Below are positions 12,069-47,402 of a stretch of 64,000 bases of DNA, piece by piece. The stretch lies in assembly GCA_051313645.2 (NCBI GenBank), contig JBNRSN020000009.1:63054001-63118000 (forward strand), in the 5' to 3' direction. Below the pieces are notes generated by a model. That model saw only the letters and a program-made list of their open reading frames with translations, was not told the origin of the DNA and ran no database searches. A program made the translations under genes and the position numbers. How positions within the stretch are numbered: position 1 is the stretch's first letter; every line of letters starts with the position of its first letter. Origin of the DNA: Centroscyllium fabricii. Taxonomy: Eukaryota.

Positions 12069-12248
12069 ACACCATGTAGAGTGTTCAACACATTAAGACA
12101 GACTCAGGATTGTTGTGTGCTCAGCCTTTGCTCGAGGCCTTGTTTAATCTCTCTCACTTCCTATTAACCCTCTGTTGCCCCCTACTGGGCAGAGGGTAAC
12201 TATCACTACAATGGGGATCCATTTTAGGGGAAGCCAGTGTGCCCAGTA

Positions 12249-17018: not shown

Positions 17019-20000
17019 TGTCGTAAAACACGACTTCTGAAATAACCTAGGAAGGGTTACTGGTTGGACTTCCGAAACAACCTAGGAAGAGTTACTGGTC
17101 GGCCAGCTGAGGGCGCTGACCAGGGAGTATAAATATGGGGGCCTGGGCCCACCTTGGACAGAGACAATCTGGAACCAGGAGGCTAGTGACTGTAAACTAG
17201 CTCTCTCTCTTTATCTTGTGTTATAAGTTGAATAAAGCCTTGCTTTATGTTCACCAAGAGCTTGGTAAGTCTTTATTACATCAATTTATTCAACTTATTA
17301 TCGTCTCCACACTTGGGTGATTCGGAACTACCAGTTGCAACTCAATCTTAGAAAGGAACTTGGCAAGGAATTGAATCCATCGTGGAAAAACTCCTGAGAC
17401 CTGCTCGCCTGGACCTGGAACCAAATGTACCTGCAGCAGCAAAGGTATCGAAGCATTGGTTTCATACTTTTAGCAGCTTTCTTGAAGAATATGAAGCGGA
17501 TGCTTCTATTAAATTATGAATGCTTATCAACTATGTATCCCCTCACGTATATGATTATATTGAGGACTGTACAGACTATGATGCTGCTATCCAGACTTTA
17601 CAACAGCTGTACGTCAAATCTCCGAATGAAGTCTTTGCACAACACCTACTGGCCACAACTCGGCAGCAGCTGGGGGAATCACTTGATAAATTCCTCCAGA
17701 AACTTTGTAGGCTTAGTAAAGACTGTAACTTTAAGGCTAGTACAGCTGAGCAATATCAAGAGGAACTCATCTGCGATTCCTTTATCAATGGAATTGTGGC
17801 TCCTTTTATATGTCAGCGACTACTGGAAAATAAAACCCTCGATTTACGGGTTGCCTACGACCAGGTGTGCACTTTGGACCTAGCAAACAAAATGCAGACA
17901 CTTATCTCCAACCGTGTGCATGGGTGGTGGCTATCACTAGAAAAGAATCCTTTGATAGGTCTCAGATGGAAGATCTCGCTGATGATGACTCTACCCTAAC
18001 AGATGATGACCCTACCCCCGAGGCCTTCACTGATGCCGACCCTACCCTAGCAGCATCCTGGCAATCAAACAAAAAGTGTTTCTTTTGTGGAAGTACATTT
18101 CATTACCGAAAATTTTGCCCAGCTCGGAATGTGACCTGCAACTATTGCAGCAAAAAAGGACATTTCTCCAAGGTATGCCAGTCGAAAGCCTCTGCTAACA
18201 AGAGAGGCCGCTCCCCTAGAGTATACCAGTCGAGAGCTCCTGTCAGCTTCACAGCTGCCCGCTATGGAACTGCTCCTCCCCCGAGAACCACTACTACAGC
18301 TACAGCTGGCGAGGATGACACTGCCCCTCCCCCATCACAGCTGTTTTTCCACAGAGTCTGTCCTATGCAGCCACAAAGGTTTCGATCGATGGACACACTC
18401 TGAGCGCATTAATTGACTCTTGTAGCTCTGACAGCTTCATCAGTAAGCGGGCTGTCAGCAGGTTAAAAGTGCATATTTACCCCTCAGTAGAGAGATTGCG
18501 ATAGCTTTGACGACTCTGACTACCAATTATTCTGGATTCTGTCTTGTCACCCTCATCCTCAATGGCCGCACCTATTCCTCCACCCGGCTTGGAATACTCG
18601 AGAATTTATGCAGTGATGTGCTTCTGGGGCAAGATTTCCAGAAGCAGCACAAGAGACTCACTTTTGAGTTTCGAGGGTCGAGGCCGGAGCTTACCATTTC
18701 AAAGGCGCCGTTTTGTGCGCTCTCGGTGGCCTTGCTCAGCGAACCCTCCTTATTTCCCAATCTCTCCCCCCGCTGTAAACCCATAGCCACCAGATTACGG
18801 CGCTTCAGCCAGGATGATCGAGCATTTATCGGGACAGAAATTTCTCGCCTCTTAGCTGAGGGAATCATTGAGCCATGTTCGTTGCCCTGGCGGGCTCAAG
18901 TCATCATTGTGAAGAACTCTTTAAAACCACATAAGAAACGTCTATGTATTGACTACTCACAGACTATCAACCAATATACCGATCTAGATGCCTACCCACT
19001 CCCACGCATAGATGATATGGTCAACAACCTTGCCAAATACAAGGTATTCTCAACCTTCGATTTAAAAAGCGCATATCATCAGGTGCCACTGAATGACTCA
19101 GACAAGAAGTATATGGCCTTTGAGGCCAATGGTCAGCTTTATCAGTTTCACTGCCTTCCATTTGGGGTCACCAATGGGGTGGTTGTCTTTCAATGAGCCA
19201 TGGATGGGTGGGTCAGTCAAGAGAACTTGATGGATACTTTTTCGTATTTGGACAATATCACTATTGCCAGCCATGATCATAAGGAACACGACGCCAACCT
19301 TTGGCACTTTTTTGACGTCCTCCGTCGTCGCCACTTAATGTTGAAAGAATCTAAATCAGTGAAATCGGTGCCGTCAGTTAATACTCTTGGCTACTGGGTG
19401 GGCAACGGTGTCATTAAAACAGACCCAGAGTGACTTCATCCACTTCAGGAGCTCCCTCCCCCTGCAAATCTTGGCGCTCTTCGTCGGGCACTTGACATGT
19501 TTGCTTATTGCACAAAGTGGAAACCTCACTTCTCTGATAAAATACAGCTCCTGCTTCATGCAAAGTCTTTTCCATTAGATGCAACGGCTATTTCAGCCTT
19601 TGACCTCCTCAAACAGCAGCTGGAGAAAGCCACGCTTCACTCCATCGACGAGAACCTTCCCTTTGTGGTCGAGTGTGACGCATCGGAGGTAGCGATCTCG
19701 GCTACCCTGAATCAAGGTGGGCGACCTGTGGCATTCCTATCCAGAACTTTGCAGGGTAGCGAGCTCCATTATCCCCCCATCGAGAAGGAGGCCACAGCCA
19801 TCATCGAAGCTGTGCGCCAATGGAGTCATTTTCTTGCTCGGCGTCATTTTACACTCATAACCGATCAGTGTTCCATTGCCTTCATGTTGGATAACCGGAA
19901 ACGCACCAAAATCTAAAATAATAAAATTCAACCTTGGCGAATGGAGTTGGCTGCCTTTGGATATACTATCCGTTACCGACCCGGCAAACAGAATGTGGCC

Positions 20001-20419
20001 CCCGATACCTTCACACAGGCATTCTGCTCTTCAGTGTCATCATCAACTCTGGCGGATCTCCATATGGACTTCTGCCATCCGGGCGTAACTCGCATGCTGC
20101 ATTTTGTGCGATCCAAAATCTACCAATCTCCACGGAAGATGTCAGAAGAGTTTGCTCCTCCTGCAGGACTTGTGCAGAATTGAAACCACAATTCTTCCGC
20201 CCATCAGACAGCGTACCGATACACGCTATGCAGCCCATGCAGTGACTTAGCATAGACTTTAAAGGGCCATTGCTCTCTTCTACATGGAATACCTACCTCT
20301 TTACGTTGGTAGATGAGTATTCACGCTTTCCCTTTACCTTCCCCTGCCCTAATATGCTTACCTCTACGGTTATCAAATGCCTCGATCACGTCTTTTCTCT
20401 TTGTGGTACGACCAATTTC
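17019..20419 (+). mobile_element. Degenerate YLDN-lineage Gypsy element: 5' LTR 17019-17283 plus gag-PR-RT-RH-IN truncated in IN
   Basis: LTR TGTCG...ACATCA with TATAAA and AATAAA; CFFCGSTFH..C / CNYCSKKGH..C; IDYSQTINQYTDLDAYPLPRI; YLDN at 19245-19256; many stops and frameshifts. Confidence 0.85.
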
Positions 20420-22239
20420 GGGACTGGGAGACTCTACCCCCACACGCCTTATGAATCGAATGCTGGCCCTCCTCAGCGACCACGAAAACTGTCCCTTATT
20501 TAGGGCGCTGTTCATCAGTATGCTACCACAGTCGCTGCAAACAGCCTTAGCCAACTCAGAAGGCCTCACCTCTGCGTCCACTGGCCTGACCCTGATGGTC
20601 CTTCATTTCCAGGCAGCCGGCACGACACTCTTATGCGACACTTCCGTGTCCCATCCCAGGCCGTTAGTGCCCACCTCGTGGCGCAGGCGCATCTTCGACC
20701 TAATCCACGGCCTTTCTCACCTGGGCATGCGAGCTTCCCAGAAGCTGCTGTCCTCTAAATTTGTGTGGCCCGGCCTGCACAAAGACATGTGAGACTGGAC
20801 CAACACCTGTCCCAATTGCCAGCGTGCCAAGGTGCACCAACACACCAAGGCTCCCCTGCAACACTTCCCGGTCCCCGAACGCAGGTTTGACCACGTCCAC
20901 GTGGATTTGGTCAGCCCCTTACCCCCCTCGCAGGGATTCACGCACCTCCTCACCATCGTCGACCGCACCACCAGGTGGCCGGAGGTCGTACCCTTGTCCT
21001 CCACTACCACGCCGTTGTGGCACGTGCCTTCATCTTTGCCTGGGTAGCCCGGTTCGGGGTCCCGTCAGACATAACCTCCGACAGGGGCCCACAGTTCTCC
21101 TCCCAACTGCAGGGCACCATCGTCGCAGGCCTGGGGACCAAGTTACACCACACAATGGCCTACCACCCCCAGGCCAACGGTATATGCGAACGTTTCCACC
21201 GCACCCTTAAGGCCTCGCTCCGTGCCAGCTTGGCTAACGCCACCTGGCTCGACAGACTCCCTTGGGTCCTGCTCAGATTGTGATTGGCGCCCAAAGACGA
21301 CTTCGGCGTTTCTTCGGCCGAACTCGTCCTGGGCCAACCCCTGCGCATCCCCGGGGAGTTCCCCCCTCCGTCAATGAGGGTTGGTCGGTGGGCGAACCGC
21401 TAGCTCGACACAACGACGCAGCCCATAGTTTTCTTCCCGTGCCCACTTCGTCACACGGGCGCCGGTCGTCCCACGTGCCCATCGAGCTCCGCCAGGTCCA
21501 GTTCGTGTTCGTTCACCGCGACACACACAAGACACCTTTACACCTTCCGTGTCCTGGACGCGGGCGATAAAGTGTTTCTCCTCGCGGTCGGTGGTAGACG
21601 GGACCTCGTGTCCATCGACAGGCTCAAAGCGGCCCACTTGGATCCCACTTGGCGTGAGCAATGTCCTTCGGGCCCCCACGTGGAATTTTCTCCCTCCACA
21701 AGTGAGGCTGCGCTGGGCCCGGGCCCAGCCCCTGTCGAGCCCACCAATAGGGTCCCGTCTCCCGCACCGCCCCCGGTCCCCACACCGGTTTTGCCCAAAA
21801 CTGCTACGCCCCTGCAGGCCCTCAGCCCCGTCCATGAAACGCCCGTCCTCGCGTCACCCGCACCCGTGGGCTATCACACACGCTCCGGCCGCCTGGTCAA
21901 GCCTCCTCGGAGGTTGACCTACCACGTTAATGAGGATTCTGGGGGGTCATACGTGGTGTATCTACCCGGGGAAGCCCCTGGGTCTTCCCTTTAAGCCACA
22001 ATCCCCATTTCACAGTCGGTCCCGCCTACACTTTCCTATTGGGCAGCCAGCGTCCCTGTCCTGGTTCCTGACTGGCCTAAGGCACCGTCCATCACTTTTC
22101 CCACAATGCTTCGTGCTTTTGCGCTCTTTTCCAACAGTCATTGTATGGAGTTTATGAATAAAAACCTGTTTTACCTGTGCTCCTGTGCACTGCGTTTCTT
22201 TGGTAAAAACTTCAAGTAGGAGGTTGGATAACCCCTACA
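20420..22239 (+). mobile_element. Internally deleted CsRn1-like element: gag piece joined to IN, PPT, 3' LTR (~21952-22239)
   Basis: GLGDSTPTRLMNRML gag piece; HVDLVSPLPPSQG, SDRGPQF, YHPQANG; PPT TCTGGGGGG; LTR with AATAAA ending CCCTACA. Confidence 0.8.
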
Positions 22240-22331
22240 CTATCCTCCTCATTGTTTACTACATCTCCAAGTTTCATATCACCTGTAGACTTTGAAATTA
22301 TGCCCTGTATACCCAAGTCCAGGTCATTAAT

Positions 22332-23256
22332 GGGCCCTGTTTTCCTGTGCTCCAGAGGAGCTGCACACTCACGAAGGGGGTTCAGAAATGCCCCGTGGGT
22401 GTGCAGCACGGGGGATGCCCACGAACGTCAATTTCCTGTGCTGATGGGCAAGGACCTTCAGCTTCCAACGCAGGAAGACCTTGCACTGACGATTTCCTGT
22501 ATTAACTGGTCAAAATGCGTGTGTAATTACGTGTGCAAGTCCCTCTCCAGCTGCCCATGTAGGAATCAGTCGTTGCTGGTGCTGTAGTGCGTTCAGAACG
22601 GGAGAAACACTCTGAAAAGCTTTAAAAGGTAAGTTTTTTGTTGATTCCTTTGGTGATGTGTGTGTGTGGTGTTTCAACTTTTAAATTGAAGTGATTTTTT
22701 TTTTAATTGAAAAAAAACCGGGTTTTGAGCTGTTTTGCTGCCTTTTCTTTTTTAAAGACCGTTTTTGTAAAAATTAAACTATCTGCTGTCTTCTCACTGT
22801 GTGTGTTGTTTGAACTGGTAAATTTGAGTGATTCTAAAAAAAAATGGGTTTTTAACTGTTTTGCAGCCTTTGCTTTTTTAAACACTGGTTTTTGATTCCT
22901 AATCTAAAAATTAACTAGCTGTTAACAGTTAATTTTTTTTTCACAGAAAACGATCAAAAGTAAGCAATCATACTTACAGATCTTTTCAGCTGCTAGCGAG
23001 CCTTTCCTTTCTGCAAGATTCTGTGCGTTCTGTGGGGGCGTGGTCAGAAAAATCGGACCTCAGTGGGCGTGGCTTGGTCATCGCCCACGCAGAAAGCACA
23101 ACGCAGCAGCAGAAGCCAGAACCCTACGCAGCCCATGAAGATGGCAAATCTTACAGGAAATCGACGGGGAAAAAATAATAATAATAACGTGCGCGTGCGC
23201 CGCGGGTGTGCAGGAGCGCGCACCCGCAGCAAACGGAGCACAGGAAAACAGGGCCC
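22332..23256. mobile_element. PIF/Harbinger-type MITE inside CR1
   Basis: Perfect 22-bp TIR GGGCCCTGTTTTCCTGTGCTCC; 3-bp TSD AAT; CR1 sequence rejoins across it. Confidence 0.88.
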
Positions 23257-25539
23257 AATATATGTCAAAAAGAGCATGGTCCTAATATTGACACCTGGGG
23301 AGCACTATTGTATACTTCCCTCCCGTCTGAAAAACAACCGTTCACCACTACTCTCCGCTTTCTGTCCCTTAGCCAATTTTGAATCCATACTGCCACTGTC
23401 CCGTTAATCCCATGGGCTTTAATTTTGCTAACAAGTCTATTATGTGGTTCTTTGTCAGATGCCTTTTGAAAGTCCATATACACATCATCAACAGCACTAC
23501 CCTCATCAACCCTTTCCGTTGCTTCATCAAAGAATTCGATCAAATTAGTCAAACACAATTTGCCTTTAACAAATCCACGCTGACTTTCATTTATTAACCC
23601 ATACTTTTCCAAATGCCAATTAGTTTGGTCCCGAATTATTTTCTCAAAATTTCCCCACTACCGACGATAGGCTGACTGGCCTGTAGTTGCCCGGTTTATC
23701 CCTCTCCACTTTTTTAAACAGGGGTGTAACATTTGCCATCCTCCAGTTCTCTGGCACTAACACATATCCAATAAGGTTTGACAAATTGTGGCTAAAGCCG
23801 CTGCAATTTCCATCCTTCCCTAAGTAACCTAGGATGCATCCCATCCGGATCGGGTGACTTTTCTATTTTGAGGACTGCCAATCTTTCAAGTACACCCTCT
23901 CTATTTTTATCCTATCCAATATCGCTACTGCCTCCTCCTTTACTACTACATTGGCAGCATCCTCTTCTCTAGTGAAGGAAGATGCAAAGTACTTATTCAG
24001 TACCTCAGCCATGCCCTCTGCCTCCACAAGAAGATCTCCTTTTTGGCCCCTAATTAGCTCCACCCTTCCTTTGACTAACCTTTTGCTATTTATGTGTTTA
24101 TAAAAGACTTTTGGGTTCCCTTTTCTGTTAACTGCTAATGTATTCTCATACACTCTCTTTGCCCCTCTTATTCTCTCTTTAGATCTCCTCTGCAATGTCT
24201 TTATTCAGCTTGGTTCTCTACTATATTATGAACTTTATAATTGTCAGAAACCTTTTTCTGTCTAATTTTAACCTCTGTATCATTAGTCATCCAGGGAGCT
24301 CTAGCTTTGGATGCCCTTCCTTTCCCCCTCATAGGAATATGCCTACACTGTACTTGAACCATCTCCTCTTTGAAGGCCTCCCATTATTCAATTACTGCTT
24401 TGCCTATCAGTTTTTGATTCCAATCCACCTGGGCCAGATCCCTTTTTAACTCACTGAAGTTAACCCTCCTCCAGGTAAGTATTTTTATGCTTGATTGTAC
24501 CTTGTCCTTTTTCAGAACTATTCTAAACCTGATGATACTATGATCAATGTTCCCCAAATGCTCTCGCACTGAAACATGATCCACTTGCCCCATTTCATTT
24601 CCCAGAACTGGACCCAGTACTGCTTCCTTCCGCATTGGGTTGGAAACACACTGATCAAGAAAATTCTCTTGTACGCATTTCAGAAATTATTTCCCCTCTT
24701 TGCCCTTTACACTGTTACTGTCCCAGTTTATATTAGGATAATTGAAATGCTCCATTATCACTACTGTGTAGTTCTTGCATCTTTCTGTAATATGTCTGCA
24801 AATTTGATCCTCTATCTCCCTCCCAATATTTGGTGACCTGTAATATACACCCAGCAGAATAATAGCTCCTCTTTTGTTCCTTAATTCTAACCAAATAGAC
24901 TCTGCCTTTGGCCCCTCAACTACACCATTCCTCTCCAGTGCTAGAATAGTTTATTTGATCAATACTGCCACACGCTCTCTTTTTTCCCCTTCCCTATCTG
25001 TCCTGAATAACTTGTAGCCAGGAATATTAAGTTCCCAATCCGCCCCTTCTTTCAGCCAGGTCTCTGTTATTGCCACTATATCATAGTGCAGCTCGCCAAC
25101 CTTATTTACCATGCTCCGTGCATTTACATACATGCACTACAAACCCATCTTAGATGGCTTCACATTTGCCCCTGTCTGATCCCTCCTATTTCTGAACTAT
25201 TCTTTACTCTAGTGCCATTTGCCTCCCCCAGGGTTGTTGTAAAATCTGGTTCACCCAGGTGTCTTTCAGGGAAGGGAGCCTGCTGCTCTGACCTACTGTG
25301 CCCTACATGTGACCCATACTACGTGGTTGACCCTTAATACCCTCTGAAATGGCCTGGCAAGCTACCCAATTGAAGTAAAGAATAATAAGAAAATCAGACT
25401 GACCTATAGGCAACATCCTACACAACATATCAGGATGAGACCAAAGCAATCTCAGCCCAGGCAACCCTGAAAAGTCCTCCTCTCAAATGTCTGATTGATG
25501 GTGCTCAAGATGGTGACCAGAAGCTCTAATGGACCAGCC

Positions 25540-25925
25540 ATATCAACATTGTAGCTATGAGACCATGACAGAAGCTGGGTATTTTGTGATGATTGGTTCA
25601 CCTTAAAGCTTCTCTACAAGCCTCAAGTCAGGAAAGTGATGGAAGACTCACCATTCGCCTAGATGAGTGCAGTCACAACAATGCTGAAGGAGCTTGACCC
25701 CATCCAGGAAAGAATAGTTCACTTGATCAGTGCCCCTGCCATTGGATTCAATGTCTACCCTATCCATCACTGGTACATTGTGACTGCAGTATGTACAATC
25801 TACAGGATGCACTACAGCAACTCCTTCACCTGTGGCCTCTACCACTGAGAAGGACAAGAGCAGCAAAGGGAACACCATCACCTCTCGTTGCCCCTCCAAG
25901 TTTCACACTGTCCTGACTTGACACT
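25540..25925 (+). mobile_element. Old CR1/L2-group LINE 3' fragment
   Basis: Degenerate QVRKVME.SP.A.MSAVTTMLKELDPIQERIVHLI RT C-terminal signature. Confidence 0.55.
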
Positions 25926-26130
25926 CCTGCTCCTCCTGGGCCATAAAGATCCGTAGAAAATGTAAAACTAAAACATTTACCTGGGCCTCTTCTGGCCCGA
26001 CGCTGAGTTTAATCAGCTTTTGCTGGCGGGTTTGGCACCCTGTGGGCCTCACAATCCTGGGAGTTAAAATTGTGTTGTGACGCCGATGATGTCAGCCAGC
26101 TGCGACTTCTGCATCTTAAGTAGGCCCCTG

Positions 26131-26228
26131 CCTGGCTGGGGTGGGCTGGGCTGGGCTGGGCTGGGATGGGGTGGGCTGGGGTGGGCTGGGATGGACTGGG
26201 GTGGGCTGGGATGGACTGGGGTGGGCTG
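26131..26228. repeat. (GGGCT/GGGGT/GGGAT)n pentanucleotide microsatellite
   Basis: Directly visible tandem 5-mers. Confidence 0.9.
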
Positions 26229-28194
26229 CCCTCCCGACTTGTTGTTTTGGGTGGAGTTAAAGTGGCATACAGCGGTAAATATTGGGAATGTGGCGTGAAC
26301 CCTGCTCCACCCGCGCCCACCCCCCACCCCTCTGCTCTGTGAACAACCCGCCCGCCCTGTTCACCCTGGCCTGGCCGGGTTACAATCCAGGCTCAACAGT
26401 CTGCAGATGACGATGTAAATCTTTTATCTCATTAAACTTTAGAGAGATTATTTCAAATGACATTCAGTAAGACTGGCTCCATTGTGGTTTTGTTTTTATT
26501 TTGTCTATTATATCCCCTTAAGGCAACTTTAAGCTTGAAGTATTCAAAGCTGCTCTTTTTAAATCACTATCACTATCAGACAAATTGTTCCACTATTTTG
26601 GGTCTGCCAAAGACTGTTTCAAACAATAGGAAATAAATGTTGTCTTTTGTTCTGTGCATCAGCAAGAATGGCCATATTAATAGTGATATTTGCAGCTAAA
26701 TATATGTTATTTAGCAGCATAATGCAGAATTATATTACTGCTTTAGAGCAATAGAAAGGAATGACCACACAGGATGCTGAGAGTTAGAGGTAATTCCATC
26801 CAGCTGTGAGATCTTCAAAAAGTATCTATCTACCAATTAGAGACAATGATCTTCAGAGCGTTCTTTTTAATGCTTCTCCTTTGTAAACATTGCACCTTCA
26901 AGAAGAAACTGAAGCCCATACCTTGCTGTAAGACATTAAAGGAGATTTCTGTGTCCCTGCCCACTTTCTTGTTGCAAAGAACAGGAATTCTGGCATGCTG
27001 AAAGACGGGGAAATAAACAGAAGATGAAAATGAATTGCAAGACTTTGGGGAAAGGCCAGCATATCAACTTTAGTTCTTTATTATTGGTCCTTGGCCAGAC
27101 TTGCCCACACTGATTGGCTTCCCAATAGTTCAGCTGGTTTATCCAATAACTAGCTAAGTTATACAGACACAAAGGCCGGAATTTTGCCAGCGCTCAGAGT
27201 GCGGGTTTGGAGGCGGGACCACTGTCAAAATGGCAAAGATTGACAGTGGGTAGGAAACCTGCTGTCAACCCACCTCCAATCAATCTTCCCAAGTGTCAGG
27301 TCCCCGATTTGCGCATGGACCTGAATCCTAGTGGCGGGAAGAGGATTCTAGCCACTCACCTGCCTGTTAATAGGTAGTGGATAGTAGTTGACAGGCTCTT
27401 TTTTCAATTTTGCTGCTTCTGCCTTGGGTTTCCCGACATCTGGACACCACGCCAGGTAAGTTTGGTGTGTTATGAGTCTGCTGTAATGTTTCTGCTTTGA
27501 TGGCAGCTGCAGAAATGGTGTGAGGGATCCAATGGTGCACTGATGAGTTTCAGAGGTAAGAAAATGTTGGGAAAATCATTTTTAATCCATTTACACTTTT
27601 CTGTAGGTAACAAGTTTTGAATTGGCTGTCTAGACCCACCTCATTGGGAAAACCTCTCTCACCAGTGACAGATTGCTTCTGTCACCTCATCTGCAGCTGC
27701 CATCTGTTCCAGCCTATGGAGGGAGTCATTAGAGAGCCTGGGTGCAAGAGCTCACCTTTGTACAGTGATTGTCAATGTTTGCAGTACTTCAATGCTGTCA
27801 AACACTGAGAAATGATATGTCAAAGTAAAATTGTACGTGGTCCCTTTAAGAAAACTGGCAGATGATGCGTCTGTGATAAACCACTGTTTCTCACTGTTCT
27901 TGTTGTATATACTTACTCTGCCTGTATCGATGTAATCGGACCTAATACCATGTTGTACATAAACCTGTTATGCGATTACCGGGACACACCCAGGTCGGCT
28001 CTGCCCACGATTCCTCCCTCCCTGGAGAGGGTACATAAGTGGCCGTCTCCCATCCCCCGGCCTTACCTGGGGACAGTCGACTAGCTGGTGTATGTCCCAC
28101 CGTTTAGTTAATAAAAACCGCATTGTTTCTCCTTCTAACTACTCGTCCATGAGGTTGTTATTTCGGTCACAATTTTATTAACTAAATTTTGAAG

Positions 28195-30311
28195 ATGGAT
28201 ACCATGCTCAAGCCAGCGACGTTTGAACTGGACCCCCGAACACCAGGTGCATCAAACACTTTTACACACTGGTACAGTGTTTTCGATGCGTACCTGAGAG
28301 CGAACGCAGCGGTCGTCGTGACCGAAGAGGACAAACGACGGCTCCTCAACGCCCGGGTGGGCCCTCAGGTGTACTCCATGATAGTGGAAGCATCATCATA
28401 CTTGGATGCTATCAGGATCCTCAAAGCGGAGTACAACCGGGCACCCAATATCGTCCACGCCAGACATCTCCTAGCCACCAGGAAGCAGCAACCCGGTGAG
28501 TCCAGTGTGGAATTTTTAAGAGCGCTGAGAGTGCTTTCACGGGCCTGTGACTGCAGAGCGCTAACGGCCCCGATCCATGCGGACAGTCTCATTAGAGACG
28601 CATATGTGACAGGCCTCAGGTCGGACCTCCAGGCAAATACGGATCTGGGACACGCGCTGGACGTGGCCTCGCTAAATCTCTCATCTTACTCCGGCAACTA
28701 TATGGGCCCAGCCCCGCCATCTTGGACAACGGCGGCGCAACGGCCGGTGGAAGAGATGATCGCAGCCGCTCACGTGAAGACGGCTAAATGCTACTTCTGC
28801 GGGCAGGCTCAGCATCCGAGACGTAACTGCCCGGCAAGAGAAGCGGCCTGCACGAAATGTGGAACAAAAGGACATTACGCCAAAGTCTGTAAGGCGACCA
28901 CATCAGCCCCTAAACCGAAACTGGGCAGCGCCGCGTGTGGAACATGGGAGCAGCCATATTGGACTCAACCATCCCCCACTCAGTTCCCCGCATGGCAGCA
29001 GTCACCATATTGGACCCAGCCACCCCCTCCGCAGTACACCGCATGGTGGCAGCCATCTTGGGGACCGGCCCCGGAGGACTACTCTGCGGATCAAGAGGAA
29101 TCAGCTGACCCAATCTTAGCATCAGTAACTCTTGACCAGAACAAGACCCATTCACTGGGGAAATCGACGATGCCTGTGGAAGTGAACGGACAAGAAGTGG
29201 TGTGTCTCTTCGACAGTGGGAGCACGGTGAGTTTTATTCATCCCGAAACAGTAGAGCGCCTCTCCCTTAAGGTTATACCTGCGAGCCAAAGAATTTCGAT
29301 GGCTTCTAAATCGGAATCTGCGGACGTCTCCGGGCGTTGCGCAGTGGCCCTAACTGTACAGGGCGCGCAATTTGATAATTTTAGTTTTTTCGTGCTGTCG
29401 CAGCTCTGCGCTCCATTACTATTGGGTCTGGACTTCCAGTGCCATCTCCAAAGCGTTACCATGGCGTACGGTGGGCCCCTTCCCTCGCTCACGGTCAGCA
29501 ACTGGCGCTCAGCGCAGCACCACCGGCGCGCTACCTGTGGCCTCTCGACCCTTAAGGTCGCCACTCCCTCGCTCTTCGCCAACCTCACCTCAGACTGCAA
29601 GCCCTTCGCCACCAAGAGTAGGTGCTACAGTGCTGGGGACATGGACTTTATTAAGTCCGAGGTGCAGCGCCTACTGAATGAGGGGGTGATCGAGGCCAGT
29701 AATAGCCCCTGGAGGGCGCAGGTAGTGGTGGTCAAAACCGGAGCAAAGAACCGGATGGTCGTTGACTACAGTCAGACCATAAACCGGTTCACCCAGTTAG
29801 ATGCCTACCCCCTTCCCCGGATAGCGTGCATGGTGAACCAGATCGCACAGTTCAGGGTGTTCTCTACCATCGATCTCAAGTCCGCTTATCACCAGCTTCC
29901 CATCCGCCCAGAGGACTGTCTCTATACAGCCTTCGAGGCTGACGGTCGCCTCTACCACTTCCTTAAGGTCCCGTTTGGCATCACGAATGGGGTCTCGGTC
30001 TTCAAAAGGGAGATGGACCGAATGGTCGATCGGTACGGACTGCAAGCCACTTTCCCGTACCTCGATAACGTGACCATCTGCGGCCATGATCAGCAGGACC
30101 ATGACGCCAACCACCAGAAATTTCTCCACACCGCCAAAACACTTAATTTGACCTATAACACCGAAAAGTGCGTGTTCAGTACCACCCGCCTGGCCATCCT
30201 CAGCAGTGTTGTGGAGAATGGGGTCATCAGTCCCGACCCGGACCGCATGCGCCCCCTCATGGAGCTCCCCCTCCCCCACTCCCCCAAGGCCCTTAAACGG
30301 TGCTTGGGTTT
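28195..30311 (+). CDS. Single-frame gag-PR-RT (5' part of polyprotein); in-frame ~13-aa gag deletion relative to its relative
   Basis: CYFCGQAQH..C, CTKCGTKGH..C; LFDSGST; IDLKSAYHQ; YLDN; frame continues (CLG|FFAYY) after the nested insertion. Confidence 0.9.
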
Positions 30312-33300
30312 TGTGACCTTCAATAACGTCCACGGAGTCGTGTAGTTGATAAGAAACAATCAGGCTTTTATTGACTACAATAGGAATGCACAACAGCAAG
30401 CTGACTGTCCCCTAGAATGGCATGGGGGATGGGGACAGTCACTTAAGTACTCCCTCCAGCGGGGGAGGAGTCGTGGGCGGAGCCAGGTATGTTCCAGGTA
30501 ACAGGTATACAGTGATATAAGTGATATACAGTTTATCACATTCACCCCTTCTTTAAGAACTAAAATACAGCGGGGTGAAAAACTAACAATTACAAGTTTG
30601 ATCAAAAAAAAATATATATACAACCGCAGTTCTTATAATTACAAATTTAATCTATCAGGCGGTTTCATTATCCGCGTTGATCTTCGCACCGCTGGTGGTG
30701 CCTGTGGTGTTCGTGGTCGTGGAGCGGCTGGTTGTGTCAGTTGCTCCATTGATGCCGGTCGACTGGTGGTGGTTGTTGAATTATTTCTGTGTGGCGGTGG
30801 TGCCCTTATTCTGACAGCAGGGGGCGCCTTCTCTCCTTCGTCCTCTGACTCTAGGGGGCGCGCGCTGTGGATCCAAGCTTGGGGCGAGGTCGTGCTGCTC
30901 GCAGGTGCCTTGTGAACATACTGGGGTACTGGGGCCACGTGTCGGGGCGGGTACTTCGGCTTCGGCAGCATGGGGTGCATCACAGGACATTTTGGGTGCG
31001 CGACCTGCTGGGCGGGGCTTCTTGGGAGCTCGGGCTGCCTGGCGGGGCTGGGTTTTGGGACTCCTGCTGGGGCTAGGTCCTTTATAGACACGGTGTCCTC
31101 CCTCCCATCGGGGAACGCTATATAAGCGTACTGGGGGTTGGCGTGCAGGAGGTGGACCCGTTCGACTAGGGGATCTGCCTTGTGTCCCCTCACATGCTTC
31201 CGGAGCAGGACCGGTCCCGGAGATAGTAGCCACGATGGTAGCGAGGTCCCGGAAGCTGACTTCCTGGGGAAGGCAAGAAGTATTTCGTGAGGGGTGGCAT
31301 TGGTGGCAGTACACAGGAGGGACCGGATAGAGTGGAGTGCTTCAGGGAGAACGTCCTGCCATCGGGTGACTGGGAGGTTTTTAGACCGTAGGGCTAACTG
31401 GATGGCTTTCCAGACCGTGGCGTTCTCTCTCTCTACCTGTCCGTTCCCCCGGGGGTTGTAGCTGGTAGTCCTGCTAGTCGCGATGCCTTTCGCTAGCAGA
31501 AACTGACGCAGCTCGTCGCTCATAAAAGAGGCCCCCCGGTCACTATGGATATAGTTAGGGTACCCGAACAGGGTGAAAATGCTATTGAGAGCCTTGATGA
31601 CGGTGGTGGAGGTCATGTCCTGGCAGGGAATAGCGAAGGGGAAGCGGGAGTACTCATCTATTACGTTAAGGAAGTACACATTCCTGTTAGATGAGGGAAG
31701 GGGCCCTTTAAAGTCGACACTGAGTCGTTCAAAGGGGCGAGTGGCCTTGATCAAGTGCGCCCGGTCTGGCCGGTAGAAGTGCGGCTTGCACTCTGCGCAG
31801 ACCTGGCAGTTGCTGGTCATGGTCTTGACCTCCTCGATGGAGTAGGGGAGGTTGCGGGACTTCACAAAGTGAACCAACCTGGTGACCCCCGGGTGGCAGA
31901 GGTCATTGTGGAGAGTTTGGAGACGGTCAGCCTGTGCGCTGGCACAGGTACCGCGGGATAGGGCATCTGGGGGTTCGTTAAATATCCCGGGCCGGTACAA
32001 GATATCATAATTGAACGCAGATAGTTCAATTCTCCACCTTAATATCTTGTCGTTCTTTATTTTACCCCGTTCTTTGTTATTAAACATGAATGCGACTGAT
32101 CGTTGGTCAGTCAACAGGGTAAAACGCTTGCCGGCCAGGTAGTGCTTCCAGTGCCGCACTGCTTCAACAATGGCCTGGGCCTCCTTTTCGACTGAGGAAT
32201 GGCGGGTTTCGGGGCCTTGGAGGGTACGTGAAAAGAAGGCCACGGGTCTGCCCGCCTGGTTGAGGGTGGCGGCCAGGGCAAAGTCCGATGCATCACTCTC
32301 CACTTGGAATGGGACGGACTCATCCACAGCGTGCATCGTGGCTTTGGCAATATCGTTTTTAATTCTGCAGAACGCCGAGTTGGCTTCTGCAGAAAGGGGA
32401 AAAGAGGTCGATTTAAGTAGTGGGCGAGCTTTGTCCGCATAATTGGGGACCCACTGGGCATAATAGGCAAAGAATCCCAAACTCCGTTTAAGAGATTTGG
32501 GGGAGTGGGGGAGGGGAAGCTCCATGAGGGGACGCATGCGGTCCGGGTCTGGACCGATGACTCCATTCTCCACCACGCTGCCGAGGATGGCTAGGCGGGT
32601 GGTGTTAAACACACATTTCTCCTTGTTATATGTTAGGTTCAGAGTTTTGGCCGTAAGGAGAAATTTTTGGAGGTTATCGTTATGGTCCTGCTGATCATGG
32701 CCGCAGATGGTCACATTATCAAGATACGGGAATGTCGCTCGCAGCCCGTACCGATCAACCATTCGGTCCATCTCCCTCTGGAAGACCGAGACCCCGTTTG
32801 TGACGCCAAACGGAACCCTAAGGAAGTGGTAGAGGCGACCGTCAGCCTCAAAAGCTGTATAAGGACGGTCCTCTGGGCGGATGGGAAGCTGGTGATAAGC
32901 AGATTTTAAATCGATTGTGGAGTACACTTTAAATTGTGCGATTTGGTTCACCATGTCCGCTATCCGGGGGAGAGGGTAGGCATCTAGTTGGGTGAACCGG
33001 TTTATGGTCTGGCTGTAATCCACCACCATCCTATTCTTCTCTCCGGTTTTTACTACCACTACCTGTGCTCTCCAGGGGCTATTACTGGCCTCTATGACCC
33101 CCTCTTTTAGGAGGCGCTGCACCTCAGATTTTATAAATATCATGTCCTCAGCACTGTAGCGCCTACTTTTGGTGGTGACGGGCTTACAGTCTGGGGTGAG
33201 GTTCGCAAATAGAGATGGAGGGGCAACCTTAAGGGTTGAGAGGCCACAGGTAGTGTACTGGGGGTACCGCCTTGAGCCGCGGTTCCTGACCGTGAGTGAG

Positions 33301-34875
33301 GGAAGGGGTCCGCCGAATGCCATAGTAACGCTCCAAAGATGGCACTGAAAATCCAGTCCCAGGAGTAGGGGGCGCAGAGCTGCGGCAGCACGTAAAAACT
33401 AAGATCCTTAAAGATAGCGCCCTGTACATTAAGCATTACAGTACAGCGCCCTGTAACGTCAGCGGATTCTGACTTTGATGCCATAGATATTCTCTGGCGC
33501 GCAGGGATTACTTTAAGGGAGAGGCGCTTTACAGTATTTGGGTGAACAAAACTTACTGTGCTCCCACTGTCGAACAGGCACACCACCTCTTCATCATTGA
33601 CTTCCACCGGCATCATTGATTTCTCCAGTGGTTGAATCTTCCTCTGGTCTAGGCTCATCGATGCTAGCACAGGGTCCTCGGAGTTATCTTGATCCGGAGA
33701 GTAGTCCTCCAAGTCTGCTCCCCAAGATGGCTGCTGCCATGTGTTGGGCTGTGGAGGTTGATGCTGAGTACAAAATGGCCGCTGTAGCTGCTGCCATGAG
33801 GGCTGCTGAGTGGGGGATGGGTGAGCCCAATGTGGCTGCTCCCCTGTTCCACACGCAGCGCTGCCCAGTTTAGATTTAAAGTTAGAGTTTTTACAGACCT
33901 TTGCATAATGTCCCTTTTTGTCGCATTTTGAACAGGTCGCTTCTCTGGCAGGGCAGCTGCGTCTTGAATGTTGAGGTTGCCCACAGAAGTAGCATCTAGC
34001 TTTAGCGTGGGCAGCTGTGAGTAGTTCTTCTGCCGGTCGTTGCACCGGCGTTGTCCAAGATTGCGGGGCTGGGCCCGTATAATTACTTGAGTATGAGGAT
34101 AAGTCCATTGACGCGCTATCCAGCACGTGTCCCAAGTCTGTGGTTGCCTGTAAATCCTGGCCGTTCTGCTCCAGCAGTCTCTGTCTGGCATAGTCCGATT
34201 TTAGACCAGTTACGTAGGCGTCTCTGATGAGGCTCTCCATATGAACTTGAGCCGTTTGCGCTTTGCAATCACAGTCCCGAGCCAGAGTTCTGAGGGCTCT
34301 TAGGAACTGCACACTTGATTCGTTGTTCTGTTGCTTTCTAGTAGCAAGTATGTGTCTCGCATGGACTATGTTCGGTGCCCGCTTATATTCCGCCTCGAGG
34401 AGTCTGATGGCCTCTTGGAACGAAGGGGCGTCCACTGTCATTGAGTACACTTGAGGGCCCACTCGGGCGTTGAAGAGTCGCCGTTTTTGCTCCTCGGTCA
34501 CTATGACCGCCGCGTTGGCTCTGATGTACCCTTCGAGTACGTTTCTCCAGTGTGAGAAGGCGTTTGCTGCTCCTGAAGATCGGGGGTCAACTTCAAACAC
34601 TGATGGTTTAAGCATTGCAGTATCCATTTCCAGTAGTCAATAAAATTGTGACCTTCAATAACGTCCACGGAGTCGTGTAGTTGATAAGAAACAATCAGGC
34701 TTTTATTGACTACAATAGGAATGCACAACAGCAAGCTGACTGTCCCCTAGAATGGCATGGGAGATGGGGACAGTGACTTAAGTACTCCCTCCAGCGGGGG
34801 AGGAGTCGTGGGCGGAGCCAGGTATGTTCCAGGTAACAGGTATACAGTGATATAAGTGATATACAGTTTATCACA
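30312..34875 (-). mobile_element. Young full-length YLDN-lineage Gypsy element nested antisense in the host RT
   Basis: 229-bp LTRs 30312-30540 and 34647-34875 (2 differences); perfect TSD GGTTT; PPT AAGAAGGGGTGAA. Confidence 0.95.
30639..34627 (-). CDS. gag-pol of the nested element; one apparent 1-nt frameshift near 33368-33372
   Basis: ORFs 33140-34627 and 30639-33323 join if one C is added to a C-run (LCAP-LLLG in relatives). Confidence 0.88.
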
Positions 34876-34880
34876 GGTTT

Positions 34881-36711
34881 CTTTGCATATTACGCCCAGT
34901 GGGTCCCCAATTACGCGGACAAAGCTCGCCCACTGCTTAAATCTACCTCTTTTCCCCTGTCTGCAGAAGCCAGCTCGGTGGTCTGCGGCATTAAGAATGA
35001 CATCGCAAAAGCCACGATGCACGCTGTGGACGAGTCCGTCCCATTTCAAGTAGAGAGCGATGCATCGGACTTTGCCCTGGCCGCCACCCTTAACCAGGCG
35101 GGCAGACCCGTGGCCTTCTTCTCACGTACCCTCCAGGGCCCCGAGACCCGCCACTCCTCAGTCGAGAAGGAGGCCCAGGCCATCGTTGAAGCAGTGCGTC
35201 ACTGGAAGCACTACCTGGCCGGCAAGCGTTTTACTCTGTTGACTGACCAACGATCAGTCGCTTTTATGTTCAACAACAAAGAGCGGGGTAAAATCAAGAA
35301 CGACAAGATATTGAGGTGGAGAATTGAACTCTCCGCGTTTAATTATGATATCTTGTACCAGCCCGGGAAATTTAACGAACCCCCAGACGCCCTATCCCGC
35401 GGTACCTGTGCCAGCGCACAGACAGACCGCCTCCAAACCCTTCACAATGACCTCTGCCACCCGGGGGTCACCAGGTTGGTTCACTTCGTGAAGTCCCGCA
35501 ACCTCCCCTACTCTATCGAAGAGGTCAAGACCCTGACCAGCAACTGCCAGGTCTGCGCGGAGTGCAAGCCGCACTTCTACCGGCCAGACCGGGCGCATTT
35601 GATTAAGGCCACTCGCCCCTTTGAACGACTCAGCGTCGATTTCAAAGGGCCCCTTCCCTCCTCCAACAGGAATGTGTACTTCCTTAATGTGATCGATGAG
35701 TACTCCCGCTTCCCCTTTGCCATCCCCTGCCCGGACATGACCTGCGCCACGGTCATCAAAGCCCTTCACAGTATCTTCTCCCTGTTCGGCTACCCCAACT
35801 ATATTCATAGTGACCGGGGGGCCTCTTTTATGAGTGACGAACTGCGTCAGTTTCTGCTAGCCAAAGGCATCGCGACTAGCAGAACTACCAGCTACAACCC
35901 CCGGGGGAACGGGCAGGTTGAGAGGGAGAACGCCACTGTCTGGAAGGCCATCCTGTTAGCCCTAAGGTCTAAAAACCTCCCAGTCTCCCGATGGCAGGAC
36001 GTCCTCCCTGAAGCGCTCCACTCTATCCGGTCCCTCCTGTGTACTGCCACTAATGCCACCCCTCACGAACGACTTTTTGCCTTCCCCAGGAAGTCGGCTT
36101 CCGGGACCTCGCTACCATCGTGGCTGCTATCCCCGGGACCGGTCTTACTACGGAAGCACGTGAGGGGCCACAAGGCAGATCCCCTGGTCGAACGGGTCCA
36201 CCTCCTGCACGCCAATCCCCAGTACGCCTACGTGGCGTACCCCGACGGGAGGGAGGACACAGTGTCCATCAAGAACCTGGCACCAGCGGGAGTCCCCAAA
36301 CCCAGCCCCGCCCAGCAGCCCGCGCACCCAAGAAGCCCCGCCCAGCAGCCAGCGCACCCAAGACGCCCAGTCACGCCACCCCAGCCACCGGTGCCAAGGT
36401 ACGCTCCCCGGCACGTGGACCCAGTACTCCAGTATGCCCACCCGGCACCTGCGAGCAGCACGGCATGGCCTCCAGCATGGCTCCACAGCGCACGCCCCCT
36501 AGAGTCAGACGACGAGGGAGAGAGCGCGCCTCCTACTGTCAGTATAAGGGCACCACCACCACCCAGAAACCAACCGACGACCACCGCTCGCCAACCAGCA
36601 TCAGCACCATCGCTACAACCAACTCGGCCGGCCACTCCGCGTCCGCGGACACCACCAGCGGTGCGATGCTCGACAAGGGTCACCAGACCGCCGGAGCGAC
36701 TTAATTTATAA
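34881..36711 (+). CDS. RT end, RNase H and integrase (3' part of the same polyprotein)
   Basis: ESDASDFAL; HNDLCHPG..CQVC; VDFKGP, HSDRGASF, NGQVERE; Pro-rich tail; no stops. Confidence 0.9.
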
Positions 36712-38798
36712 ATAAAAGAACTGTTCCTTTCACACCACCGGACTTTTGTTTTAAAGAAGGGGTGAATGTGATAAACCACTGTTTCTCACTGTTCTTGTTG
36801 TATATACTTACTCTGCCTGTATCGATGTAATCGGACCTAATGCCATGTTGTACATAAACCTGTTATGCGATTACCGGGACACACCCAGGTCGGCTCCGCC
36901 CATGACTCCTCCCTCCCTGGAGAGGGTACATAAGTGGCCGTCTCCCATCCCCCGGCCTTACCTGGGGACAGTCGACTAGCTGGTGTATGTCCCACCGTTT
37001 AGTTAATAAAAACCGCATTGTTTCCCCTTCTAACTACTCGTCCACGAGGTCGTTATTTCGGTCACAGCGTCATCAAATGACGTCATCTGACCGGCTTCCT
37101 CTTAATTGGCCGGCAAGCCCACAGGGCAGTCCTAACATGGCCAATCAAGGGAAAATCACGTCCATGGGCTGGATGCAGTTGGGGGTGGGATTGGAACCTG
37201 GAAACCACCTGACCCGTTCCCTAGCCGCATCCGATGACAAAATCGCGGCAACAGGGCTCTATTTTAATAGCCCTGAGGAGGTGGGTCTGGAGGCGGGTTA
37301 GCTGCGAAAATCAGAAAAAATGGCTTCAGACACCCAACCCACCTCCATCCCGCCCCCATGCGATTTTCATGAGTGTCGGGTCAGCCACTCCCAAACTGAC
37401 CCGACTCCAACTGGTGGGACAAGTAGTTAAGGCAGTTAAGAGTCTGTTAACTGCCTTGCTAATCCTATTTTGATAGACGTTTTCCATTTTCGGGCCTCTG
37501 TCTTCTGTTTCCTGTCTTGTCAGAACAGTCCAGCTGCAAGGAGATGAGTTTCTCGAGGGCATGATCTGTAGTCATTATTGGTGCAGAACTTTAAAAGCGC
37601 TCCTGTAACATGGCTGGCATTCAAATGCATCAACGTTGTTGTTGTTGGTTTGGGATAAGATTTTGCAAATCTACTGACCTTGTGACTGGTGAAGCTGACA
37701 CACATCTGCTGTTTGAACTAATTGGAATAATTTCAGGCCACATTGAGTGTGCACTGGCAAGCTTCTTGCCTCAACTGAAATCTATAACAACGGGATGGGA
37801 ACCATTTCCATCCTCTCATCCTGGTCGTCAGATTCGGAGGAAGAGCAGCGGGGCTTAGTGCTGCCGGATGAACAAGTGGCTCAGCCCACAGCCTCCTTGG
37901 AGGAAGATGAAGAGGATGAGGAGGATAAGGAGGAGGATGGGGAGTGATGCCTTGTGGGGCTGGGTGTGGCCAATTCAGCAGCAGGCGGCCACATTGATGG
38001 CCGTCATCCATGCCAGATTCACGTAAGCTAACGCTTCAACCACAGGTGGTTGGCACATGGAGATGAATATACGTCCGACAGTCTCAAAGCCCAGGCATCA
38101 TCTGTCCAATAAACGGTGGTTTGCGCTCAGTGTCACCACCATCATTCAACATGGAAATCACCCTGAGCCCTCACTCTTGAACTTCCATGTCCCAGAACAC
38201 AGAGGCCACACTTTAGGTGATCGCAGCAGATCATTAAACCTTTTTTGACACTAAACCCATGTGCATCTGCACACAGACCTCGAGCTCACCTCCTCAGCAA
38301 TTTGCAGCCAAGCTGCTTTGGTTTGCTGAGGAGGCTGCCTCCCTCCTTTTCCAGGGAAAAGGAGATCCTGAAGTCCTCTAACTCCCTCTACAAGAGCATG
38401 GAGGGAGCCCTCATTGAACCTGGGTGCAACCTTAGTTTTTGGGAGCTGCCATTCCTGCATCTCCCAGCACTTTTAAGAGAAAAAAGCATTAATATTACTG
38501 AAGTATCGTCAATATCTTCAGATTAAAAGACTCAACGAGTAGTTACCGTAACTATAGGCTTTTAATCACTTACTTAGGAGCTACCCTCCGAACGAACATC
38601 TAAGCAGGAATGAGGGAGCCTCAGTCAGTCTCCACCTATAAAGGCCTCACCTGGGGGAGGAGTTAGAGGTGTGGCTGACCTGGCTCCCGACAGCATTACA
38701 AGGCTGTGTATCACATATACACAGCCAATTATTGGCAACAAGAATGCAGTGGTATACATAACATTATGGGTTACCACATTCACCCCTTCTTGAAAATT

Positions 38799-41700
38799 TT
38801 AAGTCCGGGGGGGGAGTGAATGGACCGAGCAGTTCAATATCAGCCTATCCAGTGGTCGTGCCAGCCTGGAGGACCGCCGGAGTTCCGGTGATGATCGCTC
38901 ATGATCCGTGCTGTTCGAGTCCGCTGGTGGCGACAGTTGCCCTGGTGCCATGGTTTCGGGTGGTGATGGTCTCCGCTGGTCCGAGCTATCGGAGTGGTGG
39001 TCCTGGGTTGGCCACTGCTGGGGCTCTGGGAAACTCGGAGGCCATTGTAGGTGTAGGGGGTGTTCTGGGTACTGTAGCTGAGTGGCCTGCTGACCGACCC
39101 GGGGCTCTGTGGTGCTTCCTGCGGGCGCCAGGTCCCTGATGGATACGGTGTCCTCACGCCCGTCCGGGAACTGCACGAATGCGTATTGCGGGTTCGCATG
39201 CAGGAGCTGCACCTTGTCCACCAGGGGGTCAGTCTTGTGGCCTCAGACGTGTCTTCTAAGGAAGACCGGCCCCGGTGTCGTCAGCCATGGCGGAAGAGCT
39301 GTCCCCGAAGTTGACTTCCTGGGAAAAGCAAAAATCAAATCATGAGGAGTTGCGTTAGTGGCCGTACATAGGAGAGAGCGTATAGAGTGCAGCGCGTCTG
39401 GGAGGACTGCCTGCCAATGGGCCACTGGAAGGCCTCTGGACTTCAGAGCCAGGGTGACCGCCTTCCAGATGATCCCATTCTCCCTTTCTACCTGGCCGTT
39501 CCCCCGGGGGTTATAACTGGTTGTTCTGCTCGTGGCAACCCCTTTCTGGAGCAGAAACTGACGCAGTTCATCGCTCATGAACGATGACCCCCGGTCGCTA
39601 TGGATGTAGCTGGAGAGACCGAAAATGGCGAACAGCGTGGTGAAGTGTTTTATCACCGTTGCGCTCGTCATATCTGCGCAGGGGAAGGCGAAGGGGAAGC
39701 GGGAGAACTCATCTACGACCGTGAGGAAGTATGAGTTGCGGTCGGTGGTGGGGAGGGGGCCTTTGAAGTCCATGCTGAGACGTTCAAAGGGGCGGGTGGC
39801 CTTGATGAGGTGCACCATGTCTGGCCGGAAAAATTGGGGTTTGCACTCGGCGCAAACAAGGCACTCTCGGGTCATAGCCTTGATCTCCGTGATGGAGTAG
39901 GGGAGGCTACGGGATCTGACGAAGTGGGCGAGTCTGGTGACACCCGGGTGGCAAAGGCGGTCGTGGAGGTCCTTCAGCCGGTCGAGCTGGGCACTGGCGC
40001 ACGTTCCCCTGGACAGTGCGTCCGGGGGTTCATTGAGTTTGCCTGGTCGGTAAAGAATGTCATACTCGTAAGTCGAGAGCTCGATCCGCCACCGCAGGAT
40101 CTTATCATTCTTGATCTTACCCTTCTGTTTATTATTAAACATAAACGCCACCGACCGTTGGTCGGTGAGAAGGGTAAAACGCTTACCGGCCAGGTAATGA
40201 CGCCAGTAGCGCACGGCCTCCACGATGGCCTGGGCCTCCTTTTCCACTGCTGAGTGGCGAGTTTCGGGTCCCTGTAGGGTGCGGGAGAAAAACGCTACGG
40301 GCCTGCCTGCCTGATTCAGGGTGGCAGCAAGGGCGAAGTCCGAAGCGTCGCTCTCCACCTGGAAGGGAATGGATTCATCAACAGCGAGCATGGTCGCCTT
40401 GATGATGTCTTCCTTTATCCGGGCGAATGCCATTTGGGCTTCTACCGAAAGGGGGAAAACGGCAGCCTTGAGCAGTGGTCTAGCCTTGTCTGCGAACTGT
40501 GGGACCCATTGTGCGTAGTAGGAGAAAAATCCTAGGCATCTCCTCAAGGCTTTAGGGTTGTGAGGTAGGGGCAGTTCTTGAAGGGGTCGCATACGCTGTG
40601 GGTCGGGGCCGAGGACCCCGTTCTCCACCACGTATCCGAGGATGGCGAGCCGGTCTGTATTAAAGACACATTTGTCTTTGTTATACGTGAGGTCCAGCTT
40701 ATCCGCCGTGTCGAGAAATTTGGCCAGATTGGCATCGTGGTCCTGCTGGTCGTGGCCGCAGATGATCACGTTGTCCAGGTAGGGGAAGGTGGCCTGCAAC
40801 TCGTTCTGGTCAACCATGTGGTCCATCTCCCGCTGGAACACTGACACTCCGTTGGTCACGCCGAAGGGGACCCGGAGGAAGTGGTAGAGCCGACCGTTCG
40901 CCTCGAAGACGGTGTAACGGCGGTCGGCTTTCCGGATCGGGAGTTGGTGATACGCTGACTTAAGGTCGATCGTGGAGAACACCTTGTACTGGGCGATCTG
41001 ATTGACCATTTCCGAGATGCGGGGAAGTGGGTAGGTGTCGAGCCCGGTGTAGCGGTTGATGGTCTGGCTGTAATCGATCACCAGCCGTTGTTTCTTGCCA
41101 GACTTTACCACTACAACCTGGGCGCGCCAGGGGCTGGTGCTGGCTTCAATTATCCCCTCCTTCAGCATACGCCCGACCTCCGACCTGATAAACGTGCGAT
41201 CCCCCACACTGTACCGCCGACTCTTGGTAGCAATAGGTTTGCACTTGGGGTCGAGGTTGGCGAACAGTGAGGGGGAGTCGATTTTCAGGGTGGAGAGGCC
41301 GCAGGCCGGGCTCCGCTTTGGGAAGGGACTGTCCCGGCTACTGACGGTGAGGGGGGGCAAGGTCCCGCCGAACTCCATTGTCACGCTCTTGAGGTGGCAC
41401 TGGAAATCCAGACCTAGTAAGGCTGGGGCGCACAACTGCTGGAGGGTGTACAATTTAAAATTACGGTACACGCACCCCTTGACTGTGAACGTGACGGAGC
41501 AGTAGCCGGTGACGTCCGCGGTGTGAGACTTTGAAGCAAGGGAGACTTGGTAGTTTGTGGGCAGGATCTGCAGTCCGCAGCGCTGCACTGTATCGGGGTG
41601 CACAAAGCTCTCCGTGCTTCCAGTGTCAAATAGGCAATTAGTAGTATAGCCGTTTATTTTGATGGGCATTATTGAGTTAGACAGGGTGTGTGGCCTGTCC

Positions 41701-47278: not shown

Positions 47279-47402
47279 GACTGTTAGCAAATTAAATTGA
47301 CCCAACCGAGTGTGACAGATAATACAGATCATAAGCATGGGCTGTAATGAATAGGTTATTAGCTCACCAATCAAATGAATTCATAATCTTGGTGTTGTGG
47401 AT

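Follow-up and report, generated by a model that had tools for sequence, protein, structure and literature searches.

Asp or Asn at the second motif-C position of reverse transcriptase in an animal Ty3/Gypsy lineage present in Centroscyllium fabricii

Elements of the window and their classification

The window analysed here is a 64,000-nt stretch of the Centroscyllium fabricii genome (GenBank assembly GCA_051313645.2, contig JBNRSN020000009.1, positions 63,054,001 to 63,118,000 of the forward strand), which holds copies of one lineage of retrotransposons with long terminal repeats (LTRs), labelled B, C, D, F and E. In reverse transcriptases (RTs) both aspartates (Asp) of motif C are nearly always present, and the third carboxylate of the active site is essential in retroviruses. 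In this lineage, the second motif-C residue may be asparagine (Asn). The copies and an unrelated Gypsy element used as control are listed below with their target-site duplications (TSDs).

7468..12068, minus strand: control element A, Gypsy, unrelated to the lineage; YLDD, 4-bp TSD, TGG-type primer site
17024..20420, plus strand: decayed copy F; 5' LTR to 17283, start approximate; gag-pol with stops and frameshifts
19245..19256, plus strand: RT motif C YLDN of copy F, TAT TTG GAC AAT
27872..37066, plus strand: element B; LTRs 27872-28171 and 36767-37066, 97.7% alike; TSD GCGTC; element C inserted inside
30058..30069, plus strand: RT motif C YLDN of element B, TAC CTC GAT AAC
30312..34875, minus strand: element C, lying inside B; LTRs 34647-34875 and 30312-30540, 99.1% alike; TSD GGTTT
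32715..32726, minus strand: RT motif C YLDN of element C, TAT CTT GAT AAT; Asn codon 32717-32715, residue 203 of P0001
32910..32912, minus strand: RT motif A Asp of element C (D138 of P0001)
38499..43376, minus strand: element D; LTRs 43098-43376 and 38499-38778, 99% alike; TSD ATTAC
40770..40781, minus strand: RT motif C YLDN of element D, TAC CTG GAC AAC
54144..56583, minus strand: copy E; 5' LTR 56583-56354, then gag, protease and the start of RT; ends before motif C

Codon reading confirmed YLDN at all four sites, two on the plus strand and two on the minus strand. A sequence-only reading of this DNA had reported the four motifs, with synonymous codons varied and Asn fixed, and was right in this; that the last two copies lie on the minus strand was left unstated. 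The window YLDN aligns to the YLDD of Ty3 RT without gaps, residue 203 of P0001 (the RT protein of element C) standing opposite Ty3 D214. The near-identical LTRs and perfect TSDs claimed for three copies were also found: the LTR pairs differ at 7 of 300 positions in B, 2 of 229 in C and 2 plus one gap in 280 in D, and all three TSDs are perfect over 5 bp. Element C has a gag-protease frame (34636-33143) and an RT-RNase H-integrase frame that is stop-free to 30639, with one frameshift in the protease region, and the open frame of D (1156 codons, 42713-39246) has breaks on both sides. No 3' LTR was found for copy F. Element A keeps YLDD, as had been noted, and is called CsRn1-like from the label given then and from its LTR start, TGTGGYG.

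The window copies are Ty3/Gypsy LTR retrotransposons. Between the LTRs, the Pfam domains of P0003 follow the Gypsy order of protease, RT, RNase H and integrase; the LTRs run from TG to CA, a polypurine tract and TSDs are present, and the integrase is of the D-D(35)-E type (D537, D595 and E631 of P0001). The best PDB match of the RT is Ty3 by sequence (E 2e-58) and by fold, 4OL8 being closest to an AlphaFold model with a predicted local distance difference test score of 91, and the outgroup matches of the lineage RT are Gypsy-type. The canonical YxDD is replaced by YLDN in 4/4 window copies that reach motif C, but YxDD is a general hallmark of RTs and not a definition of Ty3/Gypsy. The DD35E spacing and the two Cys-His motifs read in P0002 differ from Bel/Pao, for which passages of PMC554778 give an integrase of DD45-53E and a triple Cys-His box. 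No chromodomain was matched in P0001 by Pfam, hence the lineage was not placed among the Tf1/sushi chromoviruses. For the named Gypsy clades (Mag A/B/C, MolGy, Saci-2, Tag), the signature words of the lineage were absent from the text supplements searched, a search without named reference elements and with four supplement files outside it; with the same four files excepted, no name for the lineage was found in the passages or supplements of PMC6934838, PMC3601003, PMC12471100, PMC2871265, PMC6238403, PMC8556966 and PMC13524379.

Asn and Asp across the lineage

Among the best 120 of 1631 homologues, 99 carried YxDN and 21 YxDD, so the YLDN of the window is not due to chance. The best named homologues were shark and ray proteins (76-85% identical), and all ten named shark/ray matches within these 120 read YLDN. 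Named carriers of the lineage are sharks, rays and cnidarians, one Trichuris protein being YLDD, and the clusters of the Asp-type representatives include named barnacle and acoel proteins. We also surveyed the best 150 representatives of 50% clusters. Of their RT domains, 82 had an alignment of 200 residues or more with an identity of 40% or above: 35 had Asn, 46 Asp and 1 Tyr, whereas Asn was seen in none of 104 more distant Gypsy RT domains, which came mostly from fused multi-RT gene models. Some lineage members (L081, L082 and L083) and proteins (P0017 and P0062) occur in records labelled as bacterial metagenome-assembled genomes, probably as animal contamination; none of 12 pattern matches in viral contigs was confirmed.

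The state of this position has switched many times between Asn and Asp within one widespread animal lineage. The tree was built from 201 lineage rows and 51 outgroup rows with the motif column removed, and the sampling of rows favours the Asn-rich region around the query. The lineage was monophyletic against the outgroup (FastTree 0.83), and its rows comprised 133 with Asn, 67 with Asp and 1 with Tyr. About 24 changes of this site were counted on the tree, compared with a mean of 56 and a minimum of 46 in 200 shuffles; the basal branches carry Asp, and an Asp root is cheaper by 2. Per-site Fitch counts gave 25 changes at the second motif-C position versus 1 at each of the two other catalytic Asp, and in change count this position ranks with two-state sites of the Ile/Val type. 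The closest Asp/Asn pairs were 87% and 86% identical over RT-RNase H. The suggestion that YLDN defines one clade did not survive: on 40 rows hand-picked for close Asp/Asn neighbours, a single Asn clade was rejected by the approximately unbiased (AU) test (p=1.9e-5), and the starred branches force at least 9 changes.

The Asn enzymes show signs of functioning in cis. Among B, C and D, the ratio of nonsynonymous to synonymous substitution (dN/dS) was 0.04-0.08 in RT, where one pair had reached saturation, and 0.05-0.08 in RNase H-integrase; dS itself ranged from 0.4 up to saturation. This purifying selection, together with the prevalence of YxDN among the best homologues, argues that the Asn is not a product of decay. 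The motif A Asp is present in 130 of the 131 sequences of Asn type and in all 66 of Asp type; this residue, the first motif-C Asp, the motif-D Lys and the acidic residues of RNase H were each kept in at least 96% of the Asn sequences, and D595 and E631 of the integrase were kept in 92/92 and 90/90. From genome contigs we fetched 83 lineage loci, which included three separate Asn insertions (L006, L008 and L017): their frames run for 1217-1253 codons without a stop, their LTRs are 99.0-99.6% alike, and each has a 5-bp TSD; L007 shares flanks with L006 and was counted with it as one insertion. The assembly that holds them had Asn at all 14 of its lineage loci. In contigs of four runs aligned to the motif, all four third codon positions varied often, and no first-base change of the Asn codon stood among the 40 of 82 rows listed (run X1 has five T>C sites, two of them outside these rows), which is not proof.

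Near the site, Val174, Gly177 and Thr205 of P0001 were present in 0, 1 and 0 of 56 outgroup rows, respectively. The full set of three occurred in 115 of the 133 rows with Asn and 30 of the 67 with Asp; of the 17 rows without any of them, only 1 had Asn. RNase H and the fingers (at R85, Q87 and S104) also hold many lineage-wide changes.

Self-complementary primer site and neighbouring features

In all five lineage 5' LTRs of the window, the sequence from one base past the LTR is a perfect 13-14-nt complement of an LTR segment that ends in AAA.

17223..17298, plus strand: copy F, LTR 17223-17236 with primer site 17285-17298, 14/14
28103..28186, plus strand: element B, LTR 28103-28116 with primer site 28173-28186, 14/14
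34633..34713, minus strand: element C, LTR 34713-34701 with primer site 34645-34633, 13/13
43084..43171, minus strand: element D, LTR 43171-43159 with primer site 43096-43084, 13/13

Copy E has the same 14-bp self-pairing at its 5' LTR, and the best self-match of the LTR in the control element A was only 7 nt. The primer site of the lineage does not start with TGG, and no transfer RNA (tRNA) genes were found in the window. In 18 sequences, 96.8% of the cells of the helix pair, versus 72.6% when shuffled and 25-50% when slid, with 52 double changes; these sequences were chosen for showing the helix, and this selection inflates the pairing figures. In a scan without such selection, covering the 44 loci that had sufficient DNA upstream, the helix was present in 16 of the 29 loci with Asn (2 more had it off-position), in 3 of the 10 with Asp and in 2 of 5 of unclear state, versus 1 of 70 control regions; many of the negatives were decayed or without a 5' LTR. 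The YLDD members with the helix are L022, L035 and L039, and L053, an unclear case (YHDD after a frameshift), has it too. The priming signature is thus a trait of the lineage rather than the partner of Asn, and the tie between YLDN and the self-complementary primer site that the sequence-only reading had raised as a possibility is not supported. Because the basal branches carry Asp, the pairing appears to be older than Asn.

The pairing segment departs at times from a canonical poly(A) signal, and it nearly always ends in AAA before RCC. Such an end would suit the end of a primer better than the masking of a poly(A) signal alone, and the position of the TATA box would probably put the segment some tens of bases into the transcript. 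The U5 of C, D, E and F (e.g. 43098-43160, minus strand) contains a second, partial complement of the AATAAA/ATTAAA region. In both LTRs this might fold into an alternative hairpin and perhaps serve as a switch between polyadenylation and priming.

Other features were noted around these elements. The far end of copy E is an inverted copy of the first 172 LTR bases (94% alike), and both ends thus show the same U3 end; its flanks, CACAC and CATAC, resemble a 5-bp TSD with one change. Copy E is possibly an aberrant complementary DNA that became integrated. Tandem repeats of 45 nt at 41671-42150 (D) and 55070-55440 (E) encode a Pro/Arg/Cys-rich insert between Gag and protease. Copies resembling solo LTRs, related to the LTRs of D and B, lie at 535-812 and 47401-47648, and next after the truncated end of copy F comes an integrase fragment (20634-21361), 67% similar to the integrase of element A. 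A Mag-like Gypsy element with 136-nt direct repeats (98.5%) spans 2158-12210 and encloses an RT fragment (~6261-6944) resembling a long interspersed nuclear element, as well as element A, which adjoins an LTR of it. The RT motif C of this Mag-like element is QMDT in a broken frame, probably through decay.

Explanations and comparison with known systems

We suggest, with a probability of about 0.75, that this Ty3/Gypsy lineage, widespread in animals, has either Asp or Asn as its second motif-C residue and has switched repeatedly between them, and that the Asn RTs are likely active and copy their own elements; their activity is deduced from evolution. In this reading, the motif-A Asp and the first motif-C Asp would hold the catalytic metals, and the third residue would only assist (with metal A, pyrophosphate release and processivity), a role that the Ty1 and Ty3 mutant data imply. 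Earlier changes across the lineage likely made an amide adequate at the third position, so that Asn could then be gained and lost almost as freely as in a conservative Ile/Val exchange. Candidates for the permissive changes are the Thr two residues past the motif, the motif B Val-Thr-Asn-Gly-Val, the PWRAQ stretch of the fingers and a reshaped RNase H. The minus strand would likely be started from the element's own RNA, the AAA-ending LTR segment pairing with the primer site and being cut by RNase H as in Tf1, and this self-priming would belong to the whole lineage, whether Asp or Asn.

Several points weigh against this reading. None of the four window copies with the motif is intact (C is frameshifted, B is split by C, D has two breaks and F several stops), and the protease motif was not picked up by the motif search in L006, L007 and L017. 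According to the portions available of PMC2148107, the same change in Ty1, D211N, leaves an enzyme that polymerises in vitro with a preference for Mn2+ but lowers kpol 223-fold and abolishes transposition, the activity in vitro and the loss of transposition being as the sequence-only reading had correctly stated; in Ty3, D214N is described in parts of PMC5371799 as active, of low processivity and lethal for transposition. With an Asp root, parsimony gave 4-5 changes from Asp to Asn versus 19-20 from Asn to Asp in a sample biased towards the query, and such an excess of reversions could mean that Asn is mildly worse. No compensating residue emerged: 0 of 77 candidate residue states followed the Asp/Asn switch in independent pairs. 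The three residues near the site, Val174, Gly177 and Thr205, fit an earlier permissive background but are confounded with phylogeny.

It may be argued that Asn is an adaptation coupled to self-priming, in which a slower or retuned polymerase site would work in step with RNase H as it cuts the element's own primer free. Asn was seen only in the lineage with the self-complementary primer site and in none of the 104 Gypsy RT domains surveyed outside it, and passages of PMC2148107 report that Ty1 D211N transposition is restored to 5-10% by suppressors that map to RNase H. Position 355 of RNase H is Asn in 102 of 116 Asn-type versus 11 of ~53 Asp-type sequences, but in independent pairs this was not significant (2.9 same, 0.5 opposite, 7.6 no difference). 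The helix is moreover kept in the YLDD and YHDD members named above, and pairing appears older than Asn, so that we consider this coupling unlikely. From the proposal of a mobile RT lineage with an altered triad, possibly co-evolved with its priming, we retain the mobile Asn lineage, in view of the homologues, the dN/dS and the young stop-free insertions, and drop the tight co-evolution. Mobilisation of crippled Asn copies in trans by YLDD relatives, which had been named as the refuting case, is very improbable. Asp members do exist (67 of 201), and all four window copies are broken; however, such copies would not hold RT under the strong purifying selection seen here, Asn stands at every named shark/ray match and at every locus of the other assembly, and the constancy of its first base amid varied third positions, among the rows listed, points the same way without proving it. 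We can almost dismiss both an assembly artefact and recurrent CpG damage after insertion, from GAC-GAY to GAC-AAY. A single G-to-A transition turns Asp into Asn, and there is a CpG in GAC-GAY, but GAT precedes AAY in 28 of 46 Asn loci and in two of the four window copies, an outcome that no single CpG event can give, and Asn is fixed across whole subclades that include stop-free young copies. Decay of the Asp codon through CpG is largely refuted by this codon context.

In the GDN motif of mononegaviruses, the Asn is the equivalent of the second Asp. A bolder extension, which we regard as doubtful, is that the whole animal Gypsy lineage rebuilt its RT to work at full strength with two carboxylates, like the GDN polymerases, and that this rebuild came with self-priming, the coupling of polymerase and RNase H being a natural version of the Ty1 D211N suppressors. 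If so, these RTs may differ from others in the metal they prefer, in fidelity or in how well they resist pyrophosphorolysis. What the third carboxylate does has long been an open question: Ty1 and Ty3 can do without it in vitro but not in vivo, and nematode Bel/Pao elements have a natural replacement for it. The lineage supplies dozens of natural Asp and Asn enzymes of the Ty3 superfamily, with sister pairs 86-87% identical, in which to find what makes Asn tolerable. Annotation filters that require YxDD may drop abundant and conserved animal elements as dead.

The occurrence of YxDN in the Ty3 superfamily, in several animal phyla and with repeated toggling, appears to be new, and no report of YxDN in Gypsy elements was found in the literature searched, most subscription journals and Repbase lying outside it. 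For YLDN, YXDN and YVDN/YIDN/YMDN/YADN, the only relevant case in that literature was nematode Bel/Pao, a parallel already published, which gives the change a precedent. The sections available of PMC554778 give YVDN for Cer7-Cer12 of C. elegans, with retained activity that 'remains to be determined', and those of PMC9094657 give YVDN for Atlas of the hookworm Ancylostoma, with identical LTRs and an unbroken frame. These elements are alike in a natural change of YxDD to YxDN in LTR elements, but they belong to another superfamily, and their change is described in these sections as a group hallmark, whereas the lineage here has DD35E, no env and toggles between Asp and Asn. Ty3 RT (4OL8) with D214N and Ty1 with D211N share the fold, the aligned position and, in the passages cited above, polymerisation in vitro by the mutants; these mutants were made in the laboratory and do not transpose, whereas the Asn of the lineage is natural, conserved and present in young insertions. 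Tf1, Tf2 and Tj1 of the Tf1/sushi group have a primer site complementary to their own 5' LTR and not to a tRNA, according to excerpts of PMC4600332, in the same geometry as here. In that group the primer is the mRNA's own 5' end, which RNase H sets free. The lineage differs in having no chromodomain match, in a pairing segment whose last bases are the AAA in the poly(A)-signal region, with RCC next, and in an RT that forms its own lineage. The L polymerases of Mononegavirales (GDN in motif C, from part of PMC7935272) likewise have Asn in the motif-C loop of a working right-hand polymerase, but they are RNA-dependent RNA polymerases of unrelated elements, in which the Asn is fixed.

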